The notes beneath the pieces were generated by a model. It was not told where the DNA came from, searched no databases, and was given only the letters and a program-made list of their open reading frames with translations. Of a stretch of 64,000 nucleotides of DNA, positions 4,284-46,245 are shown one piece after another. The translations under genes and the position numbers were made by a program. Source of the stretch: an uncultured virus (IMG/VR IMGVR_UViG_3300037067_003438) (Duplodnaviria > Heunggongvirae > Uroviricota > Caudoviricetes); the IMG/VR virus record IMGVR_UViG_3300037067_003438; one strand, written 5' to 3'. Numbering within the stretch: position 1 is the stretch's first letter; every line of letters starts with the position of its first letter.

Positions 4284-4643
4284 TTAGTTTAGCACCCTGC
4301 TTGGTTTGACTACTGGTTGATCTATATTTGTTTGTGAATACGCCTCTTTTATCATTGCAACAAATTCGGGACAATTTTTATTTTTCCCATACTCATCTAA
4401 TAATTCAAATATATAACTTTCTAAATATCCATGATTAATACCATATAATAATTCGGCATACATTACCGCACATGTTTTATCATTAGTCAACCAATTAGTT
4501 TGAATATCACATCCACCATCCATCTTGCGGGCAAAAGTAATAAAACAAGGATATGGTGAATCTAAATTGGTATTTTCTTCATCGTCTGGGTCTGCATCGG
4601 GCATTTCTATCCCGAGAATACTATGTAAAATTTCTTTCAACAT
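4284..4643 (-). CDS. Hypothetical protein
   Basis: 119 aa ORF abutting neighbours. Confidence 0.5.
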   Translation of the reverse strand: MLKEILHSILGIEMPDADPDDEENTNLDSPYPCFITFARKMDGGCDIQTNWLTNDKTCAVMYAELLYGINHGYLESYIFELLDEYGKNKNCPEFVAMIKEAYSQTNIDQPVVKPSRVLN

Positions 4644-4996
4644 TAGAATATATTCCTTAAAATATTTTGTGTTAATTCATCTGTATCTATATTTAATAAT
4701 GGCACCCAATATGCATCTTTTAATTGTGTATCTAGTGGAATAATAGATGTATATATAAGTAATAAACTATCACCATAAATAAAAAAGTTTTTAGGTTGAG
4801 TGCTAATCCACTCTTCATGTAAATCAATATATTTAGATTTTATATCTGATAATACAGTGTGTATAATATTATTATCTAGTGTAAATGTTGGTAATTTTAT
4901 ATAATTCTTATCTAAAGATAGGGCGTATTGCTCACCCGTTATCAAATTTTGCCCCGTGGCAACAAATACTATTTTTACTGTATATTGTTTTGTCAT
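4643..4996 (-). CDS. Hypothetical protein
   Basis: 117 aa ORF abutting neighbours. Confidence 0.5.
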   Translation of the reverse strand: MTKQYTVKIVFVATGQNLITGEQYALSLDKNYIKLPTFTLDNNIIHTVLSDIKSKYIDLHEEWISTQPKNFFIYGDSLLLIYTSIIPLDTQLKDAYWVPLLNIDTDELTQNILRNIF

Positions 4997-5524
4997 TCAC
5001 TCACCAAATTCTTGTACATATTGTCTAATTGTATTAAATGCGGTAGATATAACACACTCTACAGCTTGACGGGTTACACCAAAATAGTTTCCCGTTTCCT
5101 GTAGATTCATTCCCTCAAAATAATATTTAGTAATATAATCCCGCTGTTTTTGTGTTACACCCCTGGTATTTAATAAATGTGAGATATATTCTTTATTATC
5201 TATATTATCTAACAAATTTTTACCAAATTTAGTTTCCACGTCTTGAAGTGGATGACATGGTATATTTTTTAAATTTTTACAATAAATTTTCAATAAAGCC
5301 GTTTTTACATATACACATCTTAAAGTAGACAATAAACAGGGTTTGTTTTCAAATCCATAATAATCTTCTTGATACTTCCAATCCGCACACATAATGGCTG
5401 TTGCCACTTCACCAATTTTATCATCGTCTTGTATTATTTGTGGTGCTAATTTTCCTCCGAATTTTATAATCATTCTTTTGGCTTGATTTAAATAAGATTG
5501 TAGAGTTTCATATTGTTGAGTCAT
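4997..5524 (-). CDS. Sigma-factor-like protein (region 4 HTH)
   Basis: C-terminal TQKQRDYITKYYFEGMNLQETGNYFGVTRQAV matches a sigma70 region 4 HTH. Confidence 0.7.
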   Translation of the reverse strand: MTQQYETLQSYLNQAKRMIIKFGGKLAPQIIQDDDKIGEVATAIMCADWKYQEDYYGFENKPCLLSTLRCVYVKTALLKIYCKNLKNIPCHPLQDVETKFGKNLLDNIDNKEYISHLLNTRGVTQKQRDYITKYYFEGMNLQETGNYFGVTRQAVECVISTAFNTIRQYVQEFGE

Positions 5525-6597: not shown

Positions 6598-7814
6598 ATT
6601 TTATTGTCGCCTAATCGTTGTAATTCCAGTTTTATTATTTTATCTATATTATCAAAATCTTTATAATGAATAATTAATAAATTGATATTATTATCTCTAC
6701 AATAATGTTTTTTAATACGATCATATTGCTTAGTTTTGCGTAATTGAATTAATTGTTTAATTTTATTTTTTGTATATAAATTAGATGGATAATAATGCTG
6801 ATATCCATTATATTCAATACACAAATTATAATCTGATACATAAAAATCAAATCGTAATAAATAATTAGATTGAAGTCCTCTTAAATCATTAAATGTTTTT
6901 TGTGTTTTATACCTAATATTATAGTTATCTAAATATGTTGCAATAAGGTTTTCGCCCTTACTATTACGACATTGTGGACATCCCGATGTATGTAATGCTC
7001 TATGCTGAATAGTACTTTGCCAATTACATTTACATTTTTTACATAGCCACCATACACGTTTTTTACTTCCAGGTCTATAATGTTTTGGTCCTAATTTATT
7101 TTTTAAACCGTCCCATTCTTTACACAGTTCGGGGTATAATGTTAATAAATCTGTTTTTCCAACAATAACCTTGTGACCAGAACAATACGGACAGTTTGAA
7201 TTAGAAAAAGAGGATATTCTATTACTAATTGTAGTTTGCCATTCATGTCCTCTTTTACATATCCACCATACTTTTTTACTGCTTCCCCTTGTGTAATTTT
7301 CTGGACCCAACTTATTTTTGGTATAGTTCCATTCTTCACATAATTTTGGATTTATAGTTAATAAGTCGGTTTTTCCCACTAAAGGATTCCTACCAGAACA
7401 ATAAGGACATCCATTACCTTGATTTGTACGGTCTGCTATACGAGTTAACCATACTCCATAACAGACATGACATTTCCACCAGACTTTTTGATTACTACCC
7501 TGTGTAAAATTATCGAGTAAAATATCGGGATTTAATAATATATCCCAATCTTCTATAAGGTTTGGATGGGTAGTCAATACATCATTGTATCCTTTTAATA
7601 CTTTTTTATTAGCACAATATGGACATCCTATGTTGTATATCATTCGATGGTTAATATCAGAATAATATTCGTGTTCTTGTTTACATATCCACCAATATTT
7701 TTTATTTTCTCCATATGTATGATATTCTGGTTTATCTTCACCATTCAAAGTAGGATGCCATTCTTGAGCAATTTCTGGATGTGTAATAGTAATGTTATTG
7801 TTCTTGATTTTCAT
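6594..7814 (-). CDS. Zinc-ribbon-repeat (DUF4379-like) protein with C-terminal Vsr/PD-(D/E)XK nuclease; putative homing endonuclease
   Basis: Four WWxC..H/C...CPxC repeats, then SKGE, RFDFY and IEYNGYQHY. Confidence 0.75.
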   Translation of the reverse strand: MKIKNNNITITHPEIAQEWHPTLNGEDKPEYHTYGENKKYWWICKQEHEYYSDINHRMIYNIGCPYCANKKVLKGYNDVLTTHPNLIEDWDILLNPDILLDNFTQGSNQKVWWKCHVCYGVWLTRIADRTNQGNGCPYCSGRNPLVGKTDLLTINPKLCEEWNYTKNKLGPENYTRGSSKKVWWICKRGHEWQTTISNRISSFSNSNCPYCSGHKVIVGKTDLLTLYPELCKEWDGLKNKLGPKHYRPGSKKRVWWLCKKCKCNWQSTIQHRALHTSGCPQCRNSKGENLIATYLDNYNIRYKTQKTFNDLRGLQSNYLLRFDFYVSDYNLCIEYNGYQHYYPSNLYTKNKIKQLIQLRKTKQYDRIKKHYCRDNNINLLIIHYKDFDNIDKIIKLELQRLGDNKI

Positions 7815-41445: not shown

Positions 41446-42900
41446 TTAATTTAAAGTACGTTCATATTCTGCGATATATCGTAAAAATCCATCCGACCAG
41501 GCGGAAAGTTCGGCTGTCCATAGCCCGCGATAATTTATACCATGTTTATGGCTCGACACATCTATGATATAATTTTTCTTACCATAAGGTTTGGGAACAC
41601 TATTATATCTATCACAATCCTGCGAGTCACTAAAAATGATTACACGATCTGGTTGTTCGGGTTCATGTTCGCGTAAATACTCACAAACTTGACGGGTAAA
41701 AATTCCACCACCACCCAATTTATTTCTTGCTTCTAAAATTTTATCTCGTAAAGCAAATCCTCTTACATTTTGAATTTTTTGGGTAGCATGAATAACCCGC
41801 GAATCATTACCAGCAGTTGCATAGACAGAAATGTGGTCACAGCATTCCGCCGCTAGAACAGACAAACTGGCGGCAATATCCATACGGGTATAGTCAGTAT
41901 TGTTATTTAATTTCTCCATCATTGAACCACTTGTATCTACAACAAACACCGTATGTCCATCAAGACGTGGCCATTGTGCCGCACACCTAAACATTAAATC
42001 CTCAATTTCTCGACCCCATTCTTTGGAGTTATCATATGCTCGCAAAAAATCAATAGGTAAAAGCATGTCGGGATGACAATTAGCAAAAGCATTTTGGATT
42101 AACTTACGTGACACATTAACCTGTTCCATATTACGAATATTCTTCATAAACGCAAGAGCAGGAAGTTTTTCTTCATTAATAAGATGTTCCCATACAGCTT
42201 TCTTGTCAGATTCGGATTTTGCAGCCGATAATCCAACCTCCCAAGTATCGGGAGTTGCTAATTCGCCCTCTTTCAATTTCTTAAATAGGATGGATTGGGC
42301 TAAATCTTTTGGCTTTGGATGAACTAAACGCAAGGCATCACGTAATTTCACCTCTTTGGTTTTGCCCTGCCACTTAGCCATAGAATATTCGCCATAATTA
42401 TTAAAGGCAGTAGCCAAACCCAATTTAACTTGGGCAGGTAGGGATTTCTTCCCCTTATTATCAGCCCAGTAAATAGAAAGAAATTCGGTAATTTCGTCTG
42501 GGCGTTTGCACACCTTAGCCAAAACTGGGGCTACAGGATAACCCTGACGGGCTAATTCACGCACTAACATAAGTGGAACGTGACGTAATTTTTGAGTATA
42601 GCGAGCTTCAATAGCCATATCCGCCACAATATTAGGATCTACTTGTGGAATTAATTCTTTTATTTGTTCTACAATGGTTTGTCCATCGACGTAGAAATTA
42701 TCCTCCCAAAGTAGACAGGTCATTACAAGACGGCGTAGATTGGCTTCCGATGGCTGTTTAGCTGCTTTAGCACCACCACCTCCAGCTAGACGTACAGGAC
42801 GTTCAACCGTTTTAACAGCAAAAGCATAGGGATCTAAAACTATAACTTTTTCTGTTGCAAAAATTCCGCTTTTAGTCGTTTTCTTGTTCAAGCGTGCCAT
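41446..42900 (-). CDS. TROVE/Ro60 (Rsr-like) RNA-binding protein with vWA domain
   Basis: LWED.FY, R...KLRH.P, RPDE..E, F..Y..AK, LRD.LRLVHPKP, PDTWE..LS, MIDAS VDTSGSM, IFSDSQ. Confidence 0.92.
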   Translation of the reverse strand: MARLNKKTTKSGIFATEKVIVLDPYAFAVKTVERPVRLAGGGGAKAAKQPSEANLRRLVMTCLLWEDNFYVDGQTIVEQIKELIPQVDPNIVADMAIEARYTQKLRHVPLMLVRELARQGYPVAPVLAKVCKRPDEITEFLSIYWADNKGKKSLPAQVKLGLATAFNNYGEYSMAKWQGKTKEVKLRDALRLVHPKPKDLAQSILFKKLKEGELATPDTWEVGLSAAKSESDKKAVWEHLINEEKLPALAFMKNIRNMEQVNVSRKLIQNAFANCHPDMLLPIDFLRAYDNSKEWGREIEDLMFRCAAQWPRLDGHTVFVVDTSGSMMEKLNNNTDYTRMDIAASLSVLAAECCDHISVYATAGNDSRVIHATQKIQNVRGFALRDKILEARNKLGGGGIFTRQVCEYLREHEPEQPDRVIIFSDSQDCDRYNSVPKPYGKKNYIIDVSSHKHGINYRGLWTAELSAWSDGFLRYIAEYERTLN

Positions 42901-43066
42901 AATTTTTTCCTTTAAATTAGGTATTAAAAAAAGTCTATTACTATTTCGGCGGGGTACAGCATTGTATACGCTGTGTCGATTACTTAATTAATTGGTAATT
43001 ACTCCAATATTTTTTTCGTCTCTACCCGACTCATCGGTACACCCCCGGAATAATAATAAACAAAAA

Positions 43067-43151
43067 AGAACTGGAATAATCGTAAAAACTGGATTCTTAC
43101 CAAGGAACCCGATAAATGGAGGTGATGTAATTTTTACTGTCGCCAAGTTCT
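43067..43151 (-). ncRNA. Y-RNA-like ncRNA 1 (minimal)
   Basis: AGAACU-U-GG...CC-AGUUCU stem, GUAAAAA/UUUUUAC stem, UUACAUC and AUUCC motifs shared with three paralogs. Confidence 0.75.
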
Positions 43152-43159
43152 ACATTAGT

Positions 43160-43188
43160 ATTGTAGTTTACAGACGGGTGTTTGTCAA
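43160..43188 (-). promoter_or_regulatory. Sigma70 promoter TTGACA-17-TACAAT for Y-like RNA 1 and TROVE
   Basis: Predicted +1 lies within 2-3 nt of the RNA 5' end. Confidence 0.75.
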
Positions 43189-43202
43189 GAGGAAATAAGA
43201 AA

Positions 43203-43276
43203 TACACGAGAATTAGCAATTAAACCTTTTGTTTAGAAACCATTTTCTGATGAAAGTCTAATTTTCACTACGTGTA
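43203..43276 (-). ncRNA. Y-RNA-like ncRNA 2 (minimal)
   Basis: UACACG-U-AG...CU-CGUGUA (compensatory AG/CU), AAUUAGAC/GUUUAAUU, UUUCAUC. Confidence 0.72.
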
Positions 43277-43278
43277 AG

Positions 43279-43367
43279 CTCCGAGGAGAGGATGCGAGCC
43301 TCCATACCGTTCTCACGGAATACACGATTTTAACAGAATCGCCGCCTGCCAGTTAGCGCACCTCGGA
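43279..43367 (-). tRNA. Atypical tRNA-Asn(GUU) with long variable arm
   Basis: U1-A72 acceptor UCCGAGG/CCUCGGA, G73, anticodon stem CGAUU/AAUCG with loop CUGUUAA, ~21-nt variable region, T loop CUCGCAU. Confidence 0.75.
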
Positions 43368-43373
43368 AAAAAA

Positions 43374-43445
43374 GCACTTCGGAATAAAGCAATCGGGATA
43401 TAAAACCTTTAATGTAGATGTAATCTCAACCTCCACCAGAAATGC
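43374..43445 (-). ncRNA. Y-RNA-like ncRNA 3 (minimal)
   Basis: GCAUUUC-U-GG...CC-GAAGUGC, UUACAUC, AUUCC; GTGTATATT promoter-like motif ends 6-7 nt upstream. Confidence 0.72.
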
Positions 43446-43488
43446 CTATTAAATATACACTAAAAATCATTTTAATCAAAAAAATCAC

Positions 43489-43531
43489 CATTCGGACAAT
43501 TATGGTGTATAATATAACATTCGGACAATTA
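43489..43531 (+). repeat. 14-bp direct repeat CATTCGGACAATTA flanking a GGTGTATAAT promoter
   Basis: Copies at 43489..43502 and 43518..43531; promoter motif at 43504..43513. Confidence 0.85.
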
Positions 43532-43549
43532 AACAATAGGGATGATTAT

Positions 43550-44146
43550 ATGACTGAATTGGGTAAAAAAATTATTGAGTTACGTACACAAAATCCAAAA
43601 TATAGTTATGATTATATATCAAGATTATTAAATTGTTCGCCTAGTACGGTATTTTATCATCTGAATGATGGGCGTAGAACAAAAATGTTGTTAAGAGCTA
43701 AGATACATGATAAAAAAAATGGTAATCAACCACACTATATTTTATATAGAAAACTAAACCATTTTAGACAAAACGATAGAAATATATCTTTAACACAATT
43801 TAATTATAAAAAATCATTACATTATTATATTAGAACTAAACTTTTACAATTTACAAGAAGGAACAAAAATATGGCAAATGATGCTACACTAGATGCAGTA
43901 AAGTTAAAAGTTGGAAATAATCCTATATGTTATTTAACAGGCGATCCATTGGATTTAACTAAGCCACGTTCTTTTAGTTTCGACCATATAGTTCCAGTAA
44001 GTCGTGGTGGAGATAATAGTATTGATAATCTTGGTATTTGTACACGCATGGCAAATATGTCTAAAACTAATATGACCGTTGATGAATATTTAAATTTATG
44101 TAAAAAAATATTAGAACATAATGGTTATAAAGTAGAAAAAATATAG
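43550..44146 (+). CDS. HTH plus HNH endonuclease (start likely MTELG)
   Basis: YSYDYISRLLNCSPSTVFYH HTH; CYLTG...FDHIVPVSRGG.N..DNL..C...N..K HNH. Confidence 0.85.
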   Translation: MTELGKKIIELRTQNPKYSYDYISRLLNCSPSTVFYHLNDGRRTKMLLRAKIHDKKNGNQPHYILYRKLNHFRQNDRNISLTQFNYKKSLHYYIRTKLLQFTRRNKNMANDATLDAVKLKVGNNPICYLTGDPLDLTKPRSFSFDHIVPVSRGGDNSIDNLGICTRMANMSKTNMTVDEYLNLCKKILEHNGYKVEKI

Positions 44147-44271
44147 AGGAATTGACTGGCAGTCTGTATTCGGGTTTTACCACTAAACTATATTTGGCGA
44201 ACCAAACAACTGGACTCGAACCAGTATCACGTCATTAATAGTGAAGTAAGATTGTTCGACACCATCTATAT
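44141..44271 (-). ncRNA. yrlA: YrlA-type Y RNA with circularly permuted tRNA-like module
   Basis: Terminal stem AUAUAGA-U-GG/CC-UCUAUAU; inside, 5' to 3': T arm ACUGG-UUCGAGU-CCAGU, acceptor-like stem UGUUUGG/CCAAAUA closed by UUCG, D arm UA-GUUU-AGUGGUA-AAAC. Confidence 0.85.
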
Positions 44272-44286
44272 CTTAATCTCACACCT

Positions 44287-44315
44287 ATTATACGTCGGGC
44301 ACCGCAGGTTGTCAA
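44287..44315 (-). promoter_or_regulatory. Perfect sigma70 promoter TTGACA-17-TATAAT for the YrlA-like RNA
   Basis: Exact consensus 16 nt upstream of the RNA 5' stem. Confidence 0.85.
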
Positions 44316-45114
44316 GCGGGATTTGGTGGATTTTCTAAATTTCCACAATTTCTATAACTCCAATCCCAATAAGCCTTTTAATAATATCTTTATGAATATC
44401 GTCACGAAATGTTGGACAATCTTTCTCAATTAGACGATATAATCTTTTTAATTCAGATTTACACGAATAGCTTAACGCACATGCTGCGGCACCTTTAGTA
44501 GCCCATACAGTTTTTCCTGTGCGTGTTCGCATAAATTCCCCACAAATTTTAATTCTATAACATTTTCTGGGGTCTGTTGTATAATTTTTTAAATAATTAA
44601 TTGCAATGTCAATATATTTATTCGACAAGTTTACCATCATTTTCCTCAATTAATTTATTTAATCTATTTACTTCTTCCCTATATGCCGCTAATTGGATTC
44701 CGCGAAAACCATGATGGAAACCCACCATACACGGGCGAACAATAAAGCCTGCTATATAACCTAAAATGTAGAAAGGAATATTGATAATTATTAAGATAAA
44801 ATTGAGCATATAATATAACCTTTATATTTCCACGATCTGTATAATGCCGTCTTTAAATAATTCTGCAATTAAATCTTTGCTTTTAATATCTCCAATAATA
44901 TTATGTGCATTACAATAAGTATACCAAATATAATCACCGTAATGCAAATTCACCGCGTTTTTTGCAGAACCTATATTATTCCATACAGACTTTCCTTTGG
45001 GTGTTGCGATATATTTACCCTCAAATTTTAAACGATAACATGGTTTATCTACTACATTCCGATTTAGCAAATTCCGCACGTCGAATAAATATTTTTCTTG
45101 TTTAGTCATTATAT

Positions 45115-46245
45115 TTATTCTTCATTTTCAAGTAGAAAATCGGGATTAACCACCTTGAACGAAATGCCCTTTTCAACATTTCGGCACACTATACCCTCTT
45201 GCTTTTGAGTAGGTAATAAGATAGAGTTACCTTTAGAATATTCAACAAGTTCGGGAATAGTTAAGGGTACCACGTAATTTGTTTCAAGAATCGGAACCGT
45301 TGGAATCTCATACTTGTCCATTATAGCCTTTATTTCCACGGTGTCAAGGGAAATTTCTGGATAGATCAAATTAAATACCCGCAATTCATAGTCGGATAAT
45401 TTATATTTATTTTTCTGAATTCCAGGACCTAAAATCTCACCCTGTAAGACAAGGCGATCCGATTTACCAATTAATTCCCGTAAAACTTTCTTTATTTGAT
45501 ATTTTTCTACGATCTGATGGTAAAAATCACCAAAACTTCCTTTAAAGTATTTATTTTTAAAAGAATGAGTTGTTAGATTAACATTACGTGAACAATAACC
45601 AAAATTATATTTATGCCAAAACCAAAGATAGGGAATTTTTTCTAAATAAAAAGTACTGCTTGTTCCATCAGTTTTTTCGGAAATAATTAATGGAATTTTA
45701 TTCTCTTGAACATATCTAAACACCTCTGGCATTGCCTGAATACGTGTTTCGTCGGTCTTTTTAATCCAAGCGGGCCACCCATGGCGTTTCTTTTGCACGA
45801 ATAGTTTTCTATACCAGGCAAATTTATAGAGGAATTTTCCTAATTTTGTGCGGGGTTGTTTATTCTTGTGGTCTACTAAATGATCGAGTTGATTTTCTGA
45901 ATCATATTTAGTAATATGTAGATCTTCTGTGACATCATCACCTTCTCTATACAATATTGGAAATTCACCATGGGGTAAAATGGATAATGGCATAACCAAA
46001 CCCATAGAGTAAACCCCTCGCATTTTCATAATTTTTATGCGAAATTTCTTCTGTCGCAAAAACTCAAAGTGTGGAATATCTGGACACACACTATCGCACT
46101 CTATGTATATAACTTTATCTCCTTCTTTAAATTCATCCTTTTTAACAATACATTGCCAACCCAGTACCGTGGCAAGTACAATACGATCTGCTCCGATGAT
46201 GGGTTCTATCTTATTAATTACTTGAATTGAAGCTAATTTACGCAT
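45115..46245 (-). CDS. ATP-dependent RNA ligase (DRB0094-like) with N-terminal OB module
   Basis: RKLASIQ..I.PI.GAD.I, KTDETRIQ, EKTDGTS (motif I), SRN, QGE..GPGIQKN, EGIV, SFKV.N..FLL. Confidence 0.9.
   Translation of the reverse strand: MRKLASIQVINKIEPIIGADRIVLATVLGWQCIVKKDEFKEGDKVIYIECDSVCPDIPHFEFLRQKKFRIKIMKMRGVYSMGLVMPLSILPHGEFPILYREGDDVTEDLHITKYDSENQLDHLVDHKNKQPRTKLGKFLYKFAWYRKLFVQKKRHGWPAWIKKTDETRIQAMPEVFRYVQENKIPLIISEKTDGTSSTFYLEKIPYLWFWHKYNFGYCSRNVNLTTHSFKNKYFKGSFGDFYHQIVEKYQIKKVLRELIGKSDRLVLQGEILGPGIQKNKYKLSDYELRVFNLIYPEISLDTVEIKAIMDKYEIPTVPILETNYVVPLTIPELVEYSKGNSILLPTQKQEGIVCRNVEKGISFKVVNPDFLLENEE

Follow-up and report, generated by a model that had tools for sequence, protein, structure and literature searches.

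Three putative short Y RNA genes without a tRNA-like domain upstream of a Ro60-type gene in an uncultured caudovirus

The stretch of DNA analyzed in this study, referred to as the window, comprises 64,000 nucleotides (nt) from an uncultured virus of the class Caudoviricetes (IMG/VR record IMGVR_UViG_3300037067_003438). Its content is phage-like and includes tRNAs and genes for an HNH endonuclease, an endonuclease VII and an RNA ligase. It encodes a TROVE/Ro60-like protein, and an original prediction made from the sequence had placed three minimal Y-like RNAs, here designated Y1, Y2 and Y3, in the interval 43067–43445 upstream of the corresponding gene. Structural descriptor searches, folding and matches to an independently seeded covariance model all recovered these three units. 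Based on these results, Y1–Y3 very probably represent genuine short Y RNAs, which form, together with one long YrlA-type unit (Y4), a four-gene array located upstream of and co-oriented with the phage Ro60 gene. The TROVE protein, which also contains a vWA domain, is the presumed partner of the array, as deduced from its sequence. Coordinates and supporting values of the predicted features are compiled in Table 1.

Table 1. Predicted features of the Y RNA array and its surroundings in the window (R1 and R2, covariance models described in the text).
Feature	Position	Strand	Basis or remark
Y1, short Y RNA, 85 nt	43067..43151	-	descriptor, fold, R1 53.9 bits, R2 31.3 bits (E 3e-6)
Y2, short Y RNA, 74 nt	43203..43276	-	descriptor, fold, R1 72 bits, R2 55.9 bits (E 3e-13)
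Y3, short Y RNA, ~74 nt	43372..43445	-	descriptor, fold, R1 49.2 bits, R2 25.5 bits (E 1e-4)
Y4, long YrlA-type Y RNA	44136..44271	-	R1 30.3 bits, R2 23.5 bits (E 4.5e-4)
tRNA-like cloverleaf, 90 nt	43278..43367	-	ARAGORN; cloverleaf as minimum free energy (MFE) fold
TROVE/Ro60-like protein with vWA domain, 484 aa	41446..42900	-	Pfam TROVE (E 6e-12) and VWA_2
HNH endonuclease gene	43550..44146	+	Pfam HNH_4 (E 1.2e-8); open reading frame (ORF) list
Sigma-70-like promoter TTGACA-17-TACAAT, 11/12	43160..43188	-	ends 7–9 nt before first base of Y1
Weak promoter-like site TTGATT-16-TATATT, 9/12	43452..43479	-	ends 7 nt before first base of Y3
Perfect sigma-70-like promoter TTGACA-17-TATAAT, 12/12	44287..44315	-	7–9 nt before Y4

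Read on the minus strand, the TROVE gene is preceded by 545 non-coding bases (42901–43445), followed by the HNH gene and by 190 further non-coding bases. Y1–Y3 are all encoded on the strand of the TROVE gene, 167–545 nt upstream of its start, and therefore lie, as bacterial and phage Y RNAs in the broad sense do, within a few kilobases (kb) of a Ro60/TROVE gene on the same strand.

The units were recovered with a structural descriptor consisting of a stem of at least 5 base pairs (bp), one bulged base, the motif RG-YG, an ATTCY box pairing back and the complement of the stem. Descriptor spans were 43151→43067 for Y1 (85 nt), 43276→43203 for Y2 (74 nt) and 43447→43372 for Y3 (76 nt). All three share the same order of elements. 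A closing stem of 5–7 bp and a single bulged U are followed by two further pairs, which are AG:CU in Y2 and GG:CC in the others, and then by the GGYG box on the 5' side and a second helix (helix 2). The apical part, introduced by a UAC(A/U)UC or UUCAUC box, leads to the 3' AUUCY box, after which the complement of the stem and a U-rich tail complete the unit. The 5' and 3' ends of each unit are paired, so that a bulged stem with the Ro-recognition-type GGYG box is present in all of them. Y1 comprises a 6-bp closing stem, the bulged U, GG:CC, a GGCG box, helix 2, a UACAUC box, an AUUCC box and a run of six U residues. In Y2, the stem ACACG/CGUGU and the bulged U are followed by AG:CU, a helix 2 of at least 8 bp and a UUCAUC box. 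Y3 features the stem GCAUUUC/GAAGUGC, the bulged U, GG:CC, a GGUG box, an imperfect helix 2, UACAUC and AUUCC boxes and a run of seven U residues. Closing stem and bulged U were recovered in single-sequence folds of each unit, and the fold of Y1 also contains the GGGUUC/GAAUCC apical hairpin described in the original prediction. Corresponding folding z-scores are unremarkable (-1.55 for Y1, -2.59 for Y2 and -0.70 for Y3), and the loose descriptor alone is unspecific, producing seven unrelated matches in the window. Testing of the units therefore rests on their relatives.

Neither a T arm nor an acceptor hairpin nor a D arm is present in Y1, Y2 or Y3, i.e. the tRNA-like domain of YrlA is absent from all three. 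In Y4, the closing stem, bulged U and boxes known from Y1–Y3 enclose a V hairpin, a T arm (CUGGUUCGAGUCCAG), an acceptor-like hairpin closed by UUCG and a D arm. This layout represents the permuted tRNA order of YrlA, and among the window units the tRNA-like domain is confined to Y4, the helix 2 of which is poorly formed. A Ro-binding-type scaffold with two conserved boxes and without the tRNA module, as proposed originally, is accordingly present in the three short units, with Ro binding itself presumed from the sequence. Beyond the UAC(A/U)UC box, the variable parts measure 33 nt (Y1), 22 nt (Y2) and 18 nt (Y3), close to the approximately 35, 23 and 17 nt estimated before; they are mutually unrelated, and including the 6-nt box the apical parts comprise 24–39 nt.

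For comparative analysis, 80 metagenome loci were collected using a profile of 30 TROVE proteins. A scan of viral contigs with the single TROVE protein of the window retrieved no relatives. Covariance model R1 was seeded on 12 short units, three of them originating from the window. The 30 short units behind model R2 all came from other loci, and its seed thus excludes the window. Searching both strands of the whole window at E≤10, R2 returned exactly four matches, namely Y2, Y1, Y3 and Y4. A direct-repeat search of the window missed the Y units because the copies are too diverged. At E≤1, R1 identified 171 units in the window and the 80 TROVE loci (463,123 bases, both strands), all 171 of which are located on the strand of the TROVE gene, and units were recovered beside 68 of the 81 TROVE genes examined. 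Within the 80 loci, 67 contain at least one R1 unit; of the 167 units concerned, 149 are positioned upstream of the TROVE gene and 18 downstream. The 13 loci without a match include seven that start with the gene at the contig end and three with at most 160 bases upstream. Unit lengths are bimodal, with 100 short (at most 105 nt), three intermediate and 64 long units (at least 120 nt), the long ones carrying T and D arm motifs that the short ones lack. A typical related locus harbors an array of two to five units mixing both classes. In whole genomes searched at E≤0.01, R1 matched solely beside the TROVE gene, with two matches in Bacteroides phage crAss001 (102,679 bp) and five in Caulobacter phage CcrColossus (279,967 bp).

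Alignment of the 141 distinct units, 87 of which are short, revealed that 93.5% of all cells at the 16 modelled pairs are paired, compared to 43–52% when partners were slid by one to three columns and 59.7% in shuffled alignments, none of 500 of which reached the observed value. Double changes occurred at all 16 pairs, amounting to 794 cells compared to 119–214 after sliding. Furthermore, RNAalifold applied to a plain MAFFT alignment of the 12-sequence seed detected compensatory changes at 15 of the 16 pairs. The bulged U, the last G of GGYG and the U-C-U-C residues of the second box are invariant in 140–141 of the 141 distinct units, UU-CC of the 3' box is invariant or nearly so, and every invariant position is kept in each window unit. 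The family scaffold hence begins with a basal stem, the bulged U and RG:CY pairs, above which an internal loop carries the box GGYG(A/U)AG on its 5' side and CG-YUU-UU-CC on its 3' side; helix 2 spans 8–9 bp, and the apical part opens with U(A/U)C(U/A)UC.

Named phages provide a link to published Y RNAs. According to supplementary file 5 of Chen et al. 2014 (PMC4201824), YrlA of CcrColossus is listed at 108824–108959, and an R1 unit at positions 108820–108960 of the record (L081, 2407–2547), which also scored below threshold with the Rfam YrlA model, coincides with it. The family is therefore continuous with published YrlA. As a separate observation, the upstream region of the TROVE gene in CcrColossus (L081, 1671–2720) contains six Y units (two of 85 nt, one of 107 nt and three of 141–155 nt) and a tRNA, compared to the one YrlA listed for this phage in the published table. 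In crAss001 (L082, 4465–4641), two unannotated short Y units, the sole R1 matches in that genome, are located just downstream of the TROVE gene. Moreover, inspection by eye of approximately 4640–5030 of crAss001 disclosed two tRNA-shaped RNAs of normal topology (acceptor 5' strand and D arm through to T arm and acceptor 3' strand), in which the position of the anticodon arm is occupied by a circularly permuted Ro-docking module closed by a small loop; neither R1 nor ARAGORN detected them. In the GenBank/RefSeq records, the Y tracts of both phages are blank or marked merely as terminators, the latter applying to parts of the CcrColossus tract.

Concerning biogenesis, Y1 is predicted to be transcribed from its own strong promoter, and transcription of Y3 may start at the weak site listed in Table 1. 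No promoter of its own was found for Y2, which would probably be cut from a Y3–tRNA-like–Y2 precursor by host tRNA-processing enzymes. The tRNA-like cloverleaf between Y3 and Y2, which the original prediction did not include, was classified as tRNA-Asn by ARAGORN; its anticodon loop reads CUGUUAA, its variable arm is long and its T loop, CUCGCAU, is odd. The cloverleaf fills the whole gap, its first base being the last U of the Y3 U-run and its discriminator lying 2–3 nt before the Y2 stem, and is a probable processing point freeing Y3 and Y2. One relative of this odd cloverleaf, possessing a canonical T loop and a compensatory acceptor stem, was found at L015:1017–1108. In 15 of 60 related loci scanned, tRNAs adjoin Y units on the same strand with gaps of 0–3 nt (L005, L006, L007, L010, L016, L023, L024, L026, L034, L042, L043, L046, L047, L049 and L059), and many of these abutting tRNAs pass the Rfam tRNA model. 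Locus L016, for example, shows the order Y (2299–2371), tRNA (2370–2451), Y (2450–2529), tRNA (2533–2605), Y (2604–2731), Y (2741–2880). As judged from sequence, this packing suggests tRNA-punctuated Y RNA precursors. Since the cloverleaf fills the gap and tRNAs abut Y units in these 15 loci, release of Y3 and Y2 by tRNA-processing enzymes appears to be the likeliest route. The closing stem and the U-run would serve as terminator and 3' end.

Several results weigh against the assignment of Y1–Y3 as short Y RNAs or against details of their proposed maturation. At gathering score, Rfam identified three ordinary tRNAs in the whole window and nothing else, and the YrlA (RF02553, gathering score 69 bits) and YrlB (RF02565, 97 bits) models yielded no match in 42800–44500 even at E≤10. 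Likewise, 20 related loci contained tRNAs and one twister-sister ribozyme, but no Y RNA family. Homologues of YrlB have been found only in Salmonella serovars (PMC4201824), and the corresponding Rfam model is therefore narrow; it matched neither crAss001 nor CcrColossus. The RF02553 model scored the long units of CcrColossus at 42.3 and 29.9 bits, i.e. below its cut-off. The strict motif GNCGAAN0-1G occurs in none of the four window units and in six of the 141 distinct family units, whereas its relaxed form GN[CT]G[ACT]AN0-1G is present in 110 of them. The version of the motif in this clade is GGYG(A/U)AG. Moreover, the covariation alignment was fitted to the model and consequently leans towards the structure. 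Taken together, promoter-like sites show no enrichment here (12, compared to 9.1 ± 3.1 in shuffles), and a site of the quality seen before Y3 is to be expected by chance. The cloverleaf obtained no Rfam tRNA match at E≤10, even when a 136-base query (43255–43390) was submitted, and so lacks both the covariance-model match and the canonical T loop by which a tRNA is recognized. That RNase P recognizes this spacer is therefore assumed. Finally, Y3 is a weak member of the family, given its R2 score of 25.5 bits, its imperfect helix 2, its fold z-score and its 9-of-12 promoter. The original prediction had regarded a match to an existing Rfam family, or homologues decaying from YrlA without covariation, as speaking against it; no Rfam family matches the units, and the homologues covary strongly.

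The bulged stem together with the GGYG box may represent the Ro60 docking site, since both resemble the GNCGAA/CGAA motif of YrlA, YrlB and the Yrl RNAs of phage phiLo as well as the bulged helix of animal Y RNAs. A profile of the window TROVE protein and its 29 nearest relatives matched phiLo Ro60 (9KOP, 9L5Y) over nearly the full length with an E-value of 8.8e-28, so that phiLo Ro60 is the closest solved relative of this TROVE family. The nearest sequence relative of the window protein is 65% identical, and the nearest among named phages, found in crAss-like phages, is 44% identical. As set out in the 2025 study on phiLo, the phage Ro60 binds Yrl1 and Yrl2, hairpin Y-like RNAs encoded upstream of its gene, via a CGAA motif in an internal loop, and ternary complexes with the host polynucleotide phosphorylase (PNPase) attenuate this enzyme (PMC12135203). 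By analogy to this cited work, RNAs bound to the window protein could gate the Ro60 ring and/or tether Ro60 to a host exoribonuclease such as PNPase, and different apical modules might give rise to alternative ribonucleoproteins.

The apical parts of Y1, Y2 and Y3 differ from each other, as claimed before. Within the family, the smallest short units possess 15–28 apical bases comprising the box, a weak hairpin and an A-rich run, and units of 85–103 nt add one stable hairpin, the stem of which varies by compensatory substitution between close relatives. Y2 and Y3 belong to the smallest-apex sort and Y1 to the added-hairpin sort. In clades with several relatives (L002, L004, L006, L007, L010), the sequence of the extra hairpin varies while pairing and tetraloop are kept, which suggests selection on shape and not on a target sequence. 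The apical parts of Y1 and Y3 are unlike all 87 distinct short units, their best similarities of 0.33 and 0.38 falling short of the 95th percentile (0.47), and are therefore subject to rapid turnover. The Y2 loop belongs to a recurring subtype, with similarities of 0.69 in L024 and 0.67 in L034 exceeding the 99th percentile (0.62) and weaker recurrence in L016, L001 and L064; TROVE proteins of the loci sharing it are 52–65% identical to the window protein. The unpaired start of the Y1 loop, located at 43113–43121 on the minus strand, reads AUCACCUCC and exposes CACCUCC, a stretch which we take to resemble the anti-Shine-Dalgarno end of 16S rRNA and which was not seen in the loops of related short units.

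A farther-reaching interpretation would make short YrlA-scaffold Y RNAs the main partners of a large phage Ro60 clade, produced as tRNA-punctuated polycistrons and equipped with a fast-evolving apical kit coupling Ro60 to components of host decay or translation. Host RNase P and 3'-end enzymes would then excise Y RNAs and tRNAs alike, and the exposed CACCUCC of Y1 could, for example, dock on Shine-Dalgarno sequences. We consider this interpretation rather unlikely as a whole. If it were true, short Y RNAs would not be an occasional second RNA in the phage Ro60 clade, and phages such as crAss001 would carry only short units together with permuted forms of tRNA topology, a case countering the rule that every owner of Ro60 possesses a YrlA-type RNA.

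It is more doubtful still that the units act, as the original prediction had proposed, as guide, adaptor or decoy RNAs whose scaffold docks on Ro60 and whose loops pair with specific host or phage RNAs to recruit Ro60 or a nuclease. The isolated apical parts of Y1 and Y3 would fit such a function, as would the exposed Y1 stretch, given that Shine-Dalgarno-like tetramers precede 26 of the 60 long ORFs in the window compared to 6.8% of random 17-mers. However, GGAGG itself precedes none of these 60 ORFs. Moreover, when the variable parts were compared with the remainder of the window, the longest complementary stretches (10, 11 and 11 nt for Y1, Y2 and Y3) were equalled by shuffled variable parts in 169, 147 and 112 of 200 trials, so that the proposed complementarity did not exceed controls. 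Conservation of the Y2 loop subtype across loci with such divergent TROVE proteins and the preserved pairing and tetraloop of extra apical hairpins likewise argue against variable cargo.

Decay of YrlA-type duplicates that lost their T, acceptor and D arms and now drift as pseudogenes is very improbable as an explanation of the set. A 19-nt stretch of Y1 is 79% identical to the T arm of Y4 and could be viewed as a T-arm-like remnant, but a similarity of this size is flagged by the repeat tool as often arising by chance. Short units constitute the majority class (100 of 167) with helices upheld by compensatory change, the window units retain all invariant positions, Y1 has an 11-of-12 promoter at the right distance, and the only model-detected units in the complete crAss001 genome are two short ones. 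Decay is accordingly unlikely for the short class, Y1 and Y2, and somewhat more open for Y3, the lowest-scoring short unit with an imperfect helix 2. It is hardly credible that the units are no Ro60 partners at all but terminators, processing spacers or leader structures of a tRNA-like/TROVE operon sharing motifs by happenstance: each one does end in a stem and U-run like an intrinsic terminator, one terminator scan rated the inner hairpin of Y1 terminator-like and in 15 of 60 loci tRNAs lie in among the units, but terminators need no invariant bulged U, two invariant boxes or a covarying second helix, the units of two complete phage genomes adjoin TROVE genes only and no other operon ends, and one family member is a published YrlA.

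With Y1–Y3 regarded as short Y RNAs of a Ro60 array, further features of the locus can be described. Encoded on the opposite strand, the HNH gene interrupts the array by separating Y4 from Y3, and its final codons extend into the 3' stem and U-run of Y4; related loci have uninterrupted arrays. Between Y1 and the TROVE start, a 150-nt element (42915–43064, minus strand) adopts a multi-branched fold, in which a 13-bp closing stem precedes seven U residues (MFE -38.1 kcal/mol, z-score -3.79; none of 200 shuffles folded equally well). It has no Rfam match, blastn retrieved no relative among the 80 TROVE loci, and it could represent a further non-coding RNA or an attenuator of the TROVE gene, as judged from its predicted fold. 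An RNA ligase gene (45115–46245, minus strand; PHA02142 OB fold and RNA_ligase domain) shares the strand of the TROVE gene and lies 2.2 kb upstream of it, an arrangement that brings to mind the linkage of Ro60 and RNA repair in bacterial rsr-rtcB operons. In related locus L013, the twister-sister ribozyme match (7226–7297, plus strand; 50.3 bits, cut-off 34) is positioned approximately 2.9 kb downstream of a TROVE gene. Among sequencing runs containing the window stretch, none is listed as RNA. Pieces identical to the stretch occur in two DNA metagenomes from other studies, and therefore no natural variants were obtained. Contigs of two runs guessed to be RNA cover 44026–44350 alone at low depth, in addition to short high-depth pieces continuing into unlike sequence.

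Regarding significance, the question raised in the original prediction is answered, as the minimal class is real, widely distributed and already published, and the three window genes are an expected find. Most units in the phage-type Ro60 clade are short, and this wider pattern, i.e. the short majority, the interleaving with tRNAs and the missing Rfam coverage, is moderately interesting. It also exposes an annotation gap, as Rfam reaches none of these RNAs and models such as R1 and R2 recover them. Because units are often packed end to end with tRNAs, the processing route is testable, and the natural scaffold-and-loop variants offer a way to ask what the apical module of a Y RNA recruits.

Among known systems, animal Y RNAs resemble the window units in that their 5' and 3' ends pair into a stem, one pyrimidine bulges out of the 5' strand before a few additional pairs lead into an internal loop, and a U-run forms the 3' end. 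In the animal RNAs, 7 bp precede the bulge. They differ from the window units in polymerase and terminator logic, and there is neither sequence similarity nor a match to the Rfam Y_RNA family. GGUCCGA is described as the animal Ro-contact motif, alongside the bulged helix (PMC4201824).

Compared by published description and not by sequence, Yrl1 and Yrl2 of phiLo are likewise phage-encoded hairpins without a tRNA-like part, located upstream of a Ro60 gene and built as stem, bulge and stem with the Ro-box in an internal loop. They use the CGAA motif where the window units have GGYG(A/U)AG, and the window array additionally comprises a YrlA-type unit and a tRNA-like gene. A literature search for a paper joining crAss, TROVE and Y RNA retrieved none of relevance.

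Chen et al. 2014 (PMC4201824) described YrlA, distinguished by its tRNA-like domain, beside Ro60 in 254 bacteria and 22 phages. Its Ro-binding stem module (RF02553) is identical in kind to that of the window units, its permuted T, acceptor and D arms recur in Y4 and the 64 long units, and the YUAY sequence opening its V loop corresponds to UUAC in Y1 and Y3. In contrast, Y1–Y3 lack the domain that defines it.

The nearest counterparts of the short units are YrlB and Yrn2. According to Chen et al. 2014, each species studied has a second Y RNA forming a long hairpin without a tRNA-like domain, namely YrlB in Salmonella Typhimurium and Mycobacterium smegmatis and Yrn2 in Deinococcus radiodurans; in M. 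smegmatis, YrlA and YrlB are encoded upstream of rsr and derive from one precursor (PMC4201824). The window array shows this arrangement, with hairpins lacking the tRNA-like domain co-encoded with a tRNA-like Y RNA beside a Ro60 gene. Like YrlB and Yrn2 as described there, Y1–Y3 are small presumed Ro60-associated RNAs whose genes share the strand of the Ro60 gene and lie no more than a few kb from it, with a long-hairpin shape, a small apical loop and a near-5' Ro-box in common with YrlA, and the possible T arm reported for M. smegmatis YrlB parallels Y1. Differences concern the loops, which are A/U-rich and not pyrimidine-rich in the window, the presence of three short units per locus, their phage-borne nature and the whole scaffold that Y1–Y3 share with the neighboring long unit, including the UAC(U/A)UC box. 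Since YrlB, Yrn2 and phiLo Yrl1/Yrl2 are in print, short Y RNAs without the tRNA module are a known class, and the three RNAs of the window are new members of it and not a new class of RNA.

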